Shown one piece after another: positions 37,551 through 41,055 of a DNA stretch of 64,000 nt. The stretch is from Escherichia phage ECO111 5-P, in the sequence record OR844765; one strand, 5' to 3'. Position 1 is the stretch's first letter. Each line of letters begins with the position of its first letter. The position numbers were made by a program, and so were the translations under genes. The notes under the pieces were generated by a model that saw only the letters and a program-made list of their open reading frames with translations, did not search any database and had not been told where the DNA came from.

Positions 37551-37555
37551 TAAAA

Positions 37556-37575
37556 AGGAGACTTCGGTCTCCTTT
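37556..37575 (+). terminator. terminator-like hairpin (aggagac-ttcg-gtctcct), short U-run
   Basis: Directly after gene 41 stop. Confidence 0.4.
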
Positions 37576-37579
37576 CGGG

Positions 37580-37609
37580 GTTTACATCTTCCTCTAGGCA
37601 TGATATGAT
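37580..37609 (+). promoter_or_regulatory. early promoter (GTTTAC, 18-nt spacer, TATGAT)
   Basis: GTTTAC 37580-37585; TATGAT 37604-37609. Confidence 0.5.
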
Positions 37610-37638
37610 GTACTTACACCAACCAAGAGGAAAACATT

Positions 37639-38013
37639 ATGAATATGTCTCAAGCAATTTTTACTGCAATCACAGAAAACACAACTGTTGAAGTAGTTTC
37701 TCCACTGGCGACCTACGTTATTCTTGCTCCTAAAACTATTGTATCTCGTATGGAAAACATGGGCAAACGTATCGTACAAATAGTTGGAGCTGGAAATCAA
37801 AAACTTGATTATCTACGAACCATCAAAGCTTATGAACATTTCCAACTCGAAAAAGGTTCTCCTATCCAGGTAGAACTCGTAAATGGTGATATCGTTCGAG
37901 CAATGTTCCATCATTTCTATGCATTGAATGACCCATCTAAAGCGGTTCGTTTAATTGCATATGACGCGAACCAAAACGAAATCAACGCAGATATATCTAA
38001 ATTACGTTTTTAA
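37639..38013 (+). CDS. hypothetical protein (124 aa)
   Basis: ATG with GAGGAAAA SD. Confidence 0.5.
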   Translation: MNMSQAIFTAITENTTVEVVSPLATYVILAPKTIVSRMENMGKRIVQIVGAGNQKLDYLRTIKAYEHFQLEKGSPIQVELVNGDIVRAMFHHFYALNDPSKAVRLIAYDANQNEINADISKLRF

Positions 38014-38062
38014 GTTTACTTCTCCAGTAGTTGTGTTATTATAGACCTATCAACTACTGGAG
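38014..38062 (+). promoter_or_regulatory. early promoter (GTTTAC, 17 nt, TATTAT) whose -10 is bracketed by a 12-bp perfect inverted repeat; 3-prime arm contains the SD
   Basis: Arms ctccagtagttg (38022-38033) and caactactggag (38051-38062); TATTAT 38037-38042. Confidence 0.6.
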
Positions 38063-38068
38063 AACAAA

Positions 38069-38386
38069 ATGAAAACCATCGATTGTAAAGCAGAATTTAA
38101 GATTTTTTATCACGGTTCAAGTAGTTCAGCTAACATCGAAAACATGCTTTGTCCTCCTGAGGAAACAGGAGTTCTGTCTGAAACTGGACGTAAGAAAAAC
38201 TTGGATCGTGTATTCTTTACTGAAGATATCGGTTTAGCAAAGATTTATGCAGGACGAGCAGCACGCTCTTATGGAGGTGAACCACGTCTCTATCGAGTAA
38301 TTTCTCCGGTAGACGTAGTTCAAATGAATAATACTAAAGGTGCTACAGTTTATCACGCTGAATGGGCCTTTTGCGAGGAAATATGA
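38069..38386 (+). CDS. hypothetical protein (105 aa) with H-G-S motif
   Basis: FYHGSSSS and downstream RLYRV segments; weak resemblance to NAD-binding ADP-ribosyltransferase/Tpt1-type folds. Confidence 0.45.
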   Translation: MKTIDCKAEFKIFYHGSSSSANIENMLCPPEETGVLSETGRKKNLDRVFFTEDIGLAKIYAGRAARSYGGEPRLYRVISPVDVVQMNNTKGATVYHAEWAFCEEI

Positions 38387-38571
38387 GCAAATTAACTAAA
38401 GTTACTTTTATCGGTTGGTTTAAAAGCGGTGAGATGTTCACTAAAGATATCATGTTATCAGGTGATCGCGAAGAAATCGAGTGGGTTACGGTACAACTTG
38501 CTGAAGTGAACAAAGCATTAGTTAAAGCATTTGTTAATGACGAGAAAGTTTTTGAAGCAGATTTTCGATAA
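38383..38571 (+). CDS. hypothetical protein (62 aa)
   Basis: ATGA overlap with upstream stop. Confidence 0.4.
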   Translation: MSKLTKVTFIGWFKSGEMFTKDIMLSGDREEIEWVTVQLAEVNKALVKAFVNDEKVFEADFR

Positions 38572-38642
38572 TTTTAAAATAACTGTTTACAAGCCCCACA
38601 TACTGTGTTACTATCTTTCTATCAACTACAGAGGAAATTGAA

Positions 38643-39011
38643 ATGAAAAAATTAATCGCTTTAGCAATGGTATTCGGATTAACCGGATGTGGTGCTCATG
38701 GCTTTATTCCTAATAACGTCGGCCAACTGATTTACAATCCGAATGTTAAACAATATGAACAACCTAAAGTTGAAGTGGAAGACCCGGTTACTGTAGGTAA
38801 TCGAATGATTCAAGCTGATGCTCATGCTCAACGTTATCGTGATTCTGATACTGTAGCATTATCAAAAGAACAACGCGTTAAAGAACATTGCTTACAGGCT
38901 ACTGAAATCGCATTCATTCGCTATGTTGAAACAACTGGTAAAGAGCCTACCCAGAAACAAATAGCGAATAACTACGTCCAGTGTATTGAACGTTTAAACA
39001 AATTTAATTAA
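38643..39011 (+). CDS. predicted lipoprotein (122 aa)
   Basis: Signal peptide with lipobox LTGC near the N-terminus. Confidence 0.55.
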   Translation: MKKLIALAMVFGLTGCGAHGFIPNNVGQLIYNPNVKQYEQPKVEVEDPVTVGNRMIQADAHAQRYRDSDTVALSKEQRVKEHCLQATEIAFIRYVETTGKEPTQKQIANNYVQCIERLNKFN

Positions 39012-39072
39012 TTGGTTTACGCCAAAGTTAAAATAAGATACTATAAACATAACAAATCAAGAGGAAATTAAC

Positions 39073-39321
39073 ATGGAATTATTCGTAGCTAGTTCAGTAG
39101 CGGTTTTAATCGCAGGTATTGGTTCAATCATCATTTACATGTTGCCTTGGGTAATCGCACTTATTCGTGGCACAAAAAGCACAACAGCAATCTTCTTTGT
39201 ATCTTTACTCTTTAACTGGACGATGATTGGTTGGATTGGAACTTTAATTTGGTCTATCGTTGCCGAAAAGAAATCTGCTCAGCAGCCTCAACAAGTAATT
39301 ATTATTCGAGAAAAAGAATAA
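39073..39321 (+). CDS. superinfection-immunity-like membrane protein (Imm family)
   Basis: Two TM helices with YMLPWVIALIRG ... NWTMIGWIGTLIWS, resembling the Imm_superinfect motif as I recall it. Confidence 0.55.
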   Translation: MELFVASSVAVLIAGIGSIIIYMLPWVIALIRGTKSTTAIFFVSLLFNWTMIGWIGTLIWSIVAEKKSAQQPQQVIIIREKE

Positions 39322-39325
39322 ACTT

Positions 39326-39360
39326 GTTTACATTATAGATGGACTATGTTATAGTAGTCC
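39326..39360 (+). promoter_or_regulatory. early-promoter-like cassette (GTTTAC, ggacta/tagtcc inverted repeat around tgttatag)
   Basis: GTTTAC 39326-39331; near-copy of the cassette at 1279. Confidence 0.45.
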
Positions 39361-39384
39361 TATCAAATCAACTAAGGAGTTAAA

Positions 39385-39678
39385 ATGAAAAAGTTATCAT
39401 TGGCAGCAATCTTACTTGCAGTATCATGTGCACCGGCTCCAGTTACGGCAGGTTATGATAAAGACCTCTGTGAGTGGTCAATGACTGCAAATCAAGAAGA
39501 TGTTGAACAACAAATCTTCTCTGATATCATGAACATCACTAAACGAGACCGTCCTAATATGGTTAATAAAGTTGTTGAACAACTTAAGTCTGGCGGTATC
39601 ATGCAGTACAACTATGTTTTGTATTGTGACCCTAATTTCGATAACAAAGATATCGTAACCGAAATCACAGGTGAATAA
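39385..39678 (+). CDS. predicted secreted protein/lipoprotein (97 aa)
   Basis: N-terminal signal peptide ending AVSCA. Confidence 0.5.
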   Translation: MKKLSLAAILLAVSCAPAPVTAGYDKDLCEWSMTANQEDVEQQIFSDIMNITKRDRPNMVNKVVEQLKSGGIMQYNYVLYCDPNFDNKDIVTEITGE

Positions 39679-39679
39679 T

Positions 39680-40330
39680 ATGATTTATTATATGCACAAA
39701 AACGCACCATTTAAATATGGTAAATTTCCTAATGCACAATGTTATAATATAACGCCGAACGAAAATAATAACGGATACCATATTGGTGTAATTTTTGTAA
39801 TTGTTAAAGATAATGAAATCGTTGCCTGGGCAGATTTTAAAGGTACAACATATGATGTTAATCCTGTGTCTTTCACATATTACAATATAATGGATTTGGC
39901 ATATGATTATAATTGGTTTAATCATGACACGTTGGCTCATATTGAAGGTGTAGGATTTGACATCTCTTATTCTAGCTATTCATTATGTCCTATGAGCCGA
40001 GCTCACGGTAAAGATGTATCATATCTTTCAATTCGGAAACGTGTAGACTTCAAACGTAGTACAGAGTATGTTGGTGGACTCTTTGTTAAAGATAATAAAA
40101 TAACCCGTATTAGTTATCCTTTAAGTGTAGGCCAAAAAGATGTTGATGTTGATTTGGACTTAACTGAAAATAACATTAATCGTATTGCTTCTGTATATTT
40201 TGATATCGATGAAAAAATTGTAGTGTGTGGATACGAATTACCACCTGAAGAAAAGGCCGAAGCAATTGAAGTCGAATTAGAAATTTCTGTTGATGACCAA
40301 ATATTTAATGCATTTATGAATCGAGGTTAA
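39680..40330 (+). CDS. hypothetical protein (216 aa)
   Basis: ATG 39680 two nt after upstream stop. Confidence 0.5.
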   Translation: MIYYMHKNAPFKYGKFPNAQCYNITPNENNNGYHIGVIFVIVKDNEIVAWADFKGTTYDVNPVSFTYYNIMDLAYDYNWFNHDTLAHIEGVGFDISYSSYSLCPMSRAHGKDVSYLSIRKRVDFKRSTEYVGGLFVKDNKITRISYPLSVGQKDVDVDLDLTENNINRIASVYFDIDEKIVVCGYELPPEEKAEAIEVELEISVDDQIFNAFMNRG

Positions 40331-40331
40331 A

Positions 40332-40529
40332 ATGACTACTGCAATTTGCACTGGTTCTAAAATTAGTGTTTTTACAAGTTTTGAAGATTATGAAGTTGTT
40401 TCAAAACACCAATGCCATATTAGCGTAAAAGCTAATGATGGTGTAATTTGGAATATTCCACAGTATGAAGACACTACATATGAAGTCACAGATGCGAACG
40501 GTGATAAAGCGATCTTTGTGATTGATTAA
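40332..40529 (+). CDS. hypothetical protein (65 aa)
   Basis: ATG 40332. Confidence 0.4.
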   Translation: MTTAICTGSKISVFTSFEDYEVVSKHQCHISVKANDGVIWNIPQYEDTTYEVTDANGDKAIFVID

Positions 40530-40548
40530 ATATACTCAGGAGGTACCT

Positions 40549-41016
40549 ATGGGTATTATTAACACTGCAATAGATTCTGTTTATGCATATAAGTTTATTC
40601 GACTAATGCAAAAACCTTTTACTGAATGGAAAGCATACGAAGCCAAAATCATCGATGAACGTGGAAGTGTTCTTAAACGTCCTTCTACTCCCGAAGAAAA
40701 AGCGGCGTATACACCTTTTCATGCTTCAGTTCGTTCAATGAAGCGAATGATGAGCACTGTTCCGGGTCTTAATGGAATGGCCTCAATGATGTCGGCCTGG
40801 AGTGCTGTAGCTTCACGCTATAACATTACGGAAGAACAACAGAAAGAAATATTTAAAGAACTCCCTTTATTTGAGGATATGGTTGCCGGTGATTCAGGCG
40901 GTAGTTCTCAAGCTATTGCATCAGGAACAACTACAGGTGCAGTCGTAAATAAAGGTCCAGAACAAATTCCTTCCAAGAAAAGAAAGCGAATTAAAGTAAA
41001 TATTAATAAGTTGTGA
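40549..41016 (+). CDS. hypothetical protein (155 aa)
   Basis: ATG with AGGAGG SD; Ser/Gly-rich C-terminal region. Confidence 0.5.
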   Translation: MGIINTAIDSVYAYKFIRLMQKPFTEWKAYEAKIIDERGSVLKRPSTPEEKAAYTPFHASVRSMKRMMSTVPGLNGMASMMSAWSAVASRYNITEEQQKEIFKELPLFEDMVAGDSGGSSQAIASGTTTGAVVNKGPEQIPSKKRKRIKVNINKL

Positions 41017-41055
41017 TAAGATGGCCTTATTAATTTAAGGCCTCTGGAGAATACT

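Follow-up and report, generated by a model that had tools for sequence, protein, structure and literature searches.

The interval between the replicative helicase gene 41 and the primase gene 61 was analysed in a stretch of 64,000 nucleotides (nt) of Escherichia phage ECO111 5-P (sequence record OR844765), referred to below as the window. The phage belongs to Mosigvirus, the RB69-like T-even phages of E. coli and Shigella, and the 6.2 kilobases (kb) around the locus are 98% identical to approximately 150 phage genomes. Positions 37551-41055 extend exactly from the stop of gene 41 to the start of gene 61 and hold nine open reading frames (ORFs), all on the + strand (Table 1), coordinates and count being as given by a first-pass annotation made from the DNA letters. 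In order, these are RB69ORF041c (here ORF1), a gene for a mini ADP-ribosyltransferase (ORF2), dmd, imm.1, imm, sp, adfA, an ORF of 65 residues (ORF8) and a long form of 61.1. All nine are present as coding sequences in an annotated relative of 98% identity and, since all nine have homologues in other phages, they can be considered real genes; a search for paralogues elsewhere in the window found none. T-even phages have an early-gene cluster between genes 41 and 61, and the locus is very probably the form that this cluster takes in Mosigvirus (RB69-type), rather than an insertion into an empty junction.

Table 1. Features in and around the gene 41-gene 61 interval (positions in the window; aa, amino acids)
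Feature	Position	Strand	Description
UvsX	34592-35764	+	Encoded in the window
gp40		+	Also encoded in the window
Gene 41	36108..37550	+	Replicative helicase, left boundary; 480-aa ORF; DnaB-like helicase label in relatives
Hairpin GGAGAC-TTCG-GTCTCC	37557..37572	+	Directly 3' of the gene 41 stop; read from the intergenic sequence
P1	37580..37609	+	Early-promoter-like cassette, GTTTACA-N17-TATGAT with TG
ORF1 (RB69ORF041c)	37639..38013	+	124 aa; phrog_10668 only
P2	38014..38042	+	Early-promoter-like cassette upstream of ORF2
ORF2 (RB69ORF040c family)	38069..38386	+	105 aa; predicted stand-alone mini ADP-ribosyltransferase fold
dmd (61.5)	38383..38571	+	PF17587, 7e-21, 74.7 bits (cut-off 27)
P3	38585..38614	+	Early-promoter-like cassette upstream of imm.1
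imm.1	38643..39011	+	122 aa; DUF5481, PF17578, 2e-9
P4	39015..39044	+	Early-promoter-like cassette upstream of imm
imm	39073..39321	+	Inner-membrane superinfection immunity protein; PF14373, 1.5e-15, 57.2 bits (cut-off 27.9)
P5	39326..39355	+	Early-promoter-like cassette upstream of sp, the last before gene 61
sp (61.3)	39385..39678	+	Spackle; PF25676, 1e-42, 145 bits
adfA (61.2)	39680..40330	+	Anti-DarT factor A; PF23813, 1e-118, 394.5 bits
ORF8 (RB69ORF033c)	40332..40529	+	65 aa; phrog_3249
61.1, long form	40549..41016	+	155 aa; C-terminal 54 aa align with T4 gp61.1
Hairpin GGCCTTA-TTAATT-TAAGGCC	41023..41042	+	Directly 5' of the gene 61 ribosome-binding site; read from the sequence
Gene 61	41056..42078	+	Primase, right boundary; 340-aa ORF; DNA primase label in relatives

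The first-pass annotation had taken genes 41 and 61 to be adjacent in T4 and the nine ORFs to be an accessory island inserted at this junction. The T4 reference record contradicts both statements: its transcription order is uvsX, 40, 41, dmd, 61.4, sp, 61.2, 61.1, 61, with five genes and 1.65 kb in the interval as compared with nine genes and 3.5 kb in the window. In none of the genomes with a visible 41-61 interval (T4, RB69, VR5, CC31, KP179 and CGG4-1) does gene 41 adjoin gene 61. Phage VR5 (Dhakavirus) has eight interval genes, including an ORF2 homologue, dmd, 61.4, sp and 61.1; CC31 (Karamvirus) has six, including an sp-like gene and a long 61.1; KP179 (Jiaodavirus) has four, including sp and a short 61.1; and the four of CGG4-1 (Gelderlandvirus) are sp, an ORF8 homologue, a long 61.1 and one other. 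In the Acinetobacter phage Konradin (Twarogvirinae), 61.1 adjoins 61, and an ORF2 homologue is situated ~2.4 kb upstream. Other T4-like genomes do show these genes at this position, the very observation that the first-pass annotation had named as speaking against its island: orthologous or related genes in T4, the whole set in RB69, and sp together with 61.1 in the four further genera. With a G+C content of 35.9% in the interval, 37.2% in the window and similar values in the flanking genes, there is no compositional hint of foreign DNA, and a foreign origin argued from base composition was dropped.

The locus is densely equipped with early-promoter-like cassettes. The pattern GTTTAC-N16-18-TAnnnT has 22 matches in the window, versus 2.8 ± 1.6 expected, and all except one of them are on the + strand (21 of 22); because of this enrichment and strand bias, the cassettes are probably T4-type early promoters and not chance matches. 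Five cassettes lie in a 1.8-kb part of the interval (37580-39355), and the same arrangement recurs in five of its six intergenic gaps: GTTTAC, 16-18 nt, TAnnnT, usually an upstream TG, and then a ribosome-binding site. The initial proposal of one promoter cassette per gene holds for five of the nine genes, ORF1, ORF2, imm.1, imm and sp, and fails for the four that overlap or abut their predecessors. The ORF2 stop and the dmd start share the sequence ATGA, and adfA, ORF8 and 61.1 trail the preceding genes by 1, 1 and 19 nt, respectively, so that these four genes have no room for a promoter of their own. No early-promoter pattern was found between sp and gene 61; sp, adfA, ORF8, 61.1 and probably also 61 would most likely be co-transcribed from the promoter upstream of sp and be translationally coupled. 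MotA-box middle promoters and late promoters were not found inside the interval, which contains just two bare TGCTTCA cores, both in coding sequence.

A 12-nt perfect inverted repeat (CTCCAGTAGTTG/CAACTACTGGAG, 38022-38063) flanks the -10 element of P2. The ribosome-binding site of ORF2 is part of its 3' arm and could therefore be masked in transcripts that read through from upstream, but not in those starting at P2. Elsewhere in the window, two early-promoter cassettes that are 41 kb apart (8122-8151 and 49211-49240) are identical over 30 nt (GTTTACAACCAAGGATGGTTGGAGTATAAT) and may mark a repeated element. The late-promoter motif nearest to the interval, TATAAATA (42890-42897), is located directly upstream of soc (42929-43165), and a strong bidirectional terminator-like hairpin (43173-43194) lies directly downstream of this gene.

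The first-pass annotation had described the content of the locus as host-takeover or exclusion functions. This was largely right: imm and sp are exclusion genes, and dmd and adfA are counter-defence genes. Dmd of the window shares 59% identity with its T4 orthologue and 97% with that of RB69. T4 Dmd is an early protein and binds to the host RNase toxin RnlA, which it inhibits (PMC3014915); by orthology, Dmd of the window would be an antitoxin-like inhibitor of the RNases RnlA and LsoA.

Imm is a small hydrophobic membrane protein with 66% identity to T4 Imm; judged by its sequence it is a true Imm orthologue, in agreement with the Imm-like membrane protein that had been noticed initially. The gene is present in a single copy and is absent from the T4-type site beside gene 43 (25192-27894); both T4 Imm and T4 Imm.1 match the window only within the 41-61 interval. 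Imm.1 is 35% identical to its T4 counterpart and 99% to that of RB69. It has a canonical lipobox (pattern [LVI][ASTVI][GAS]C), L-T-G-C at residues 13-16, after a hydrophobic signal (MKKLIALAMVFGLTGC), at which T4 Imm.1 has LAGC, and is plausibly a lipoprotein.

Spackle, the sp product, is 66% identical to T4 Sp. In T4, it is exported to the periplasm, where the mature protein comprises Gly23-Glu97 and contains a disulfide between Cys29 and Cys81; the gp5 tail spike of superinfecting phages has a lysozyme domain that Spackle inhibits, and together with Imm, Spackle gives superinfection exclusion (PMC7677548). In the aligned protein of the window, G23, C29 and C81 are the same as in T4. Of the two lipoproteins predicted in the first pass, Imm.1 stood, and Spackle was rejected: its A-V-S-C15 has a non-canonical -3 position, and signal removal in T4 leaves Gly23, downstream of the cysteine. 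Since Cys15 is inside the removed signal peptide and the downstream residues are conserved, Spackle is presumably soluble in the periplasm.

AdfA of the window is 69% identical to T4 gp61.2 and 98% to RB69 AdfA. AdfA as known from these phages counters the DNA ADP-ribosyltransferase toxin DarT; wild-type RB69 AdfA, with Arg164, neither binds nor neutralises E. coli DarT1, and a His164 variant does both (PMC11257639). The equivalent residue in the window is Arg, as in wild-type RB69 (...NNINRIAS... as compared with ...NIINHIAS... in T4, which has His).

The product of tifA (61.4) is a ToxN inhibitor. RB69 gp61.4 as tblastn query gave no match in the window, and compared with tifA-bearing Mosigvirus genomes (RB69, mar005P1), it shows a clean deletion of 206 bp between dmd and the imm.1 promoter (window 38571-38585). 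Of the 40 best relatives, about half possess these 206 bp, so presence or absence of tifA appears to be a polymorphism within Mosigvirus. The T4 region has been described as a possible “anti-TA island”, TA standing for toxin-antitoxin (Srikant et al. 2022, PMC9391042), and its dmd-tifA pair is driven by an early promoter (PMC9391042). Of the gene content of this island, dmd and adfA were found in the window and tifA was not.

ORF2 contains the H-G-S motif reported in the first pass, FYHGSSS at residues 13-19. H15 and G16 are invariant across 30 homologues, as are Y60 and E103, and H15...Y60...E103 form a candidate H-Y-E triad of the ADP-ribosyltransferase (ART) type. The protein is 60-98% identical in T4-like phages of Escherichia, Enterobacter, Serratia, Proteus, Erwinia, Pectobacterium, Acinetobacter and Vibrio. 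It has no Pfam match at E up to 1, and therefore none to Arr-ms (PF12120), and the profile of its family has no sequence match in the PDB even at E up to 10. Searched against 1.8 billion proteins, the profile yielded 232 relatives, many of them domains at the C-terminus or in the interior of proteins as long as 3,924 aa; the large ones also carry ART-PolyVal, NUDIX, GNAT or Toprim domains. The matches P0259, P0243 and P0238 reach Arr-ms with 27-29 bits (cut-off 25) in the region that matches ORF2, a link that is transitive only. In view of the missing direct Pfam and PDB matches, the ART assignment is based on the predicted fold and these transitive profile matches; as a fold prediction it is solid. 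The model is closest to Arr, KptA (KptA/Tpt1) and the anti-CRISPR protein AcrF11, i.e. to the Arr/KptA branch of the ART superfamily, although ORF2 is shorter than Arr (105 versus 140 aa) and has no direct Arr-ms match. Some GenBank records label the gene “ADP-ribosyl transferase”.

A possible toxin-antitoxin pair, made up of a predicted ART and Dmd, was reported from Escherichia, Shigella and Salmonella phages in a 2022 survey (PMC9503650), and judging by the gene pairing, ORF2 would be part of that survey's “p0068-family ART paired with Dmd”. ORF2 and dmd could thus be a phage type II toxin-antitoxin module, as proposed there computationally, in which the mini-ART is a toxin modifying RNA or another macromolecule and Dmd its antitoxin. 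The overlap of the two genes and their adjacency also in Dhakavirus VR5 are in keeping with such a module, as are the modelled ART fold with its invariant triad and the related domains within polyvalent effector proteins. The pairing is, however, not universal: in T4, dmd stands alone and its product works without an ART partner (PMC3014915), and RB43 and Konradin have ORF2 homologues without an annotated neighbouring dmd. On balance, a toxin-antitoxin module is unlikely, and the preferred reading is that of an early cluster in which Dmd acts on host RNases.

Relative to T4, gp61.1 of the window has an extra N-terminal domain of ~100 residues. The 155-aa form, for which 112 homologues were found in T4-like phages, is the common one; in T4, VR5 and KP179, the protein is short (53-55 aa). 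The RB69 reference annotates ORF032c and 61.1 as two genes, and since the window and most relatives have one 155-aa ORF, a frameshift or sequencing error in the RB69 record is probable. Residues 107-137 (LFEDMVAGDSGGSSQAIASGTTTGAVVNKGP) resemble residues 64-94 of RB69 gp23 (LTEAEIGGDHGYNAQNIAAGQTSGAVTQIGP; 48% identity, pairwise E 7e-7), the stretch in which the prohead protease cuts gp23 after Glu65 and the mature N-terminal arm begins. This likeness explains the “major capsid protein” label on 61.1 in some records. The AlphaFold (AF2) model of gp61.1 is weak, with a predicted local distance difference test (pLDDT) score of 64, and consists of a helical N-terminal domain and a disordered C-terminus (residues 108-141 below 50).

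The short forms start with MKTFKEFIKE (T4), MKTYKEFVNE (VR5) and MKTFKEFVKLNEE (KP179), close, as MKT[FY]KEF[IV], to the capsid targeting sequences of the T4 internal proteins IPI (MKTFKEF...) and IPII/IPIII (MKTYQEFIAE), and in T4 and VR5 gp61.1 the motif is followed by a Glu-Asp-Met junction (..KE/DM and ..NE/DM, the slash marking the junction). The decapeptide MKT[YF]xEF[IV]xE, which the short forms of T4, VR5 and KP179 have or nearly have at their N-terminus, is not at the start of the 155-aa protein of the window; a related motif is internal there, after the helical domain of ~100 aa (…KEIFKELPLFE/DM…). In IPIII, targeting is set by positions 4 and 7 and cleavage by positions 8 and 10 (PMC9026906). 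Literature linking gene 61.1 to the capsid was searched for and none was found; the capsid likeness, read from the sequence, is a lead and not a result.

In every genome examined, including the Acinetobacter phage, gp61.1 is encoded directly upstream of gene 61. Together with its apparent co-transcription with 61, there being no promoter between sp and 61, this position could suggest that the cluster, or at least gp61.1, provides accessory factors of replication for the helicase-primase pair. Such a role is improbable, given that the demonstrated functions of Dmd, Imm, Sp and AdfA are non-replicative and that the conserved gp61.1 C-terminus is similar to motifs of capsid proteins and of capsid targeting rather than to replication proteins.

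The two remaining genes are ORF1 and ORF8. ORF1 matched 134 phage records by tblastn, with at least 95% identity in 132 of them and less than 60% in the other two; by these matches, it is specific to Mosigvirus apart from the two distant ones. ORF8 has homologues in Mosigvirus, Dhakavirus and Gelderlandvirus; that of the Gelderlandvirus phage CGG4-1 also lies in the 41-61 interval. No significant match to Pfam, NCBIfam or PADLOC entries was obtained for ORF1, ORF2, ORF8 or gp61.1.

Taken together, the locus is best described as an immediate-early battery of counter-defence and exclusion genes, the content of which varies between genera and even within Mosigvirus. It may operate as follows: right after DNA entry, the host sigma-70 RNA polymerase would read the five strong T4-type early promoters, as suggested by their consensus matches and strand bias. 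The products would fall into three groups: (i) inhibitors of abortive-infection toxins, Dmd binding the RNases RnlA and LsoA and AdfA binding DarT, as do the T4 and RB69 orthologues; (ii) proteins that close the cell to further T-even phages, with Imm, by analogy to T4, blocking DNA entry at the inner membrane and periplasmic Spackle inhibiting the gp5 lysozyme; (iii) presumable accessory proteins, namely ORF041c, the mini-ART translationally coupled to dmd, the putative lipoprotein Imm.1, the 65-aa protein and gp61.1. The cluster as such is already known: RB69 and ~150 relatives have it, mechanisms have been published for four of its genes, and the region already bears a name.

Several points weigh against this description. 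The functions in the phage of the window are derived from T4 orthologues of 59-69% identity, and the five promoters are consensus matches only. An anti-defence and exclusion label for the whole block extrapolates from four characterised genes to the other five of the nine. AdfA of the window carries the Arg164 allele, reported to be inactive against DarT1, and deletion of adfA in T4 has no phenotype (PMC11257639).

A recently acquired, moron-like accessory island interrupting a 41-61 junction intact in T4 is hardly tenable even though the interval is longer than that of T4, ORF041c is confined to Mosigvirus and imm.1-imm are located elsewhere in T4. For the block in its entirety, such an insertion is already refuted by the occupied T4 site. 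Furthermore, four of the nine have an orthologue at the corresponding place in T4, the site is populated in each of the five other Tevenvirinae genera examined, the G+C content is that of the flanks, and the promoters are of the phage's own early type.

Within the early counter-defence and exclusion cluster, the uncharacterised members invite a more speculative proposal. It is conceivable, though rather doubtful, that they represent further counter-defence devices of kinds so far not shown for T-even phages: ORF2 might be an active early ART hitting a host defence component or RNA, following the logic of AcrF11 and maybe gated by Dmd, and gp61.1 might be cleaved by the prohead protease or be delivered as a peptide with the capsid. 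The latter idea stems from the gp61.1 C-terminus, which copies the gp23 cleavage junction and N-terminal arm and which is preceded by the targeting sequence in the short forms.

The gene content of the locus should forecast which hosts are open to a T-even phage. Because tifA is absent, AdfA carries Arg164 and dmd is present, the phage of the window is predicted to be sensitive to toxIN, more so than RB69, to encode an AdfA that does not neutralise DarT1, and to be resistant to rnlAB and lsoAB. The five uncharacterised genes, above all those for the highly conserved mini-ART and gp61.1, are obvious places to look for new anti-defence functions.

Two further sites in the window were noted. At the place of T4 dam, between genes 61 and 56, a hydrophobic ORF of 65 aa without family match is encoded on the - strand (42075-42272); an ORF on the - strand is annotated at this site also in RB69, VR5, KP179 and CGG4-1. 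Between gene 43 and uvsX, the sole match to T4 gp42 (dCMP hydroxymethylase) is at 32407-33018 with 24% identity, and T4 beta-glucosyltransferase as query gave no match in the window; on these two grounds, the region downstream of gene 43 appears to be organised unlike that of T4.

Among the closest known systems, the dmd-tifA (61.4)-sp-adfA (61.2)-61.1 cluster of T4 resembles the locus in position, strand and, presumably, early expression logic. Identity is 59-69% for the orthologous parts, which are dmd, sp, adfA and, of 61.1, the C-terminal portion. The window adds ORF041c, the mini-ART gene, imm.1-imm and ORF8, has the long 61.1 and is without tifA; the genus-specific part is an expansion comprising ORF041c, the ART and 65-aa genes, both of which also occur in Dhakavirus, and imm.1-imm. 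In T4, imm and imm.1 lie between genes 42 and 43, downstream of 43, whereas their copies in the window adjoin sp, placing both exclusion genes side by side. The type locus of Mosigvirus, ORF041c to 61.1 of RB69 (RB69p031-p041), holds the genes of the window in the same order with 97-99% protein identity; it differs in possessing 61.4/tifA and in the split annotation of 61.1.

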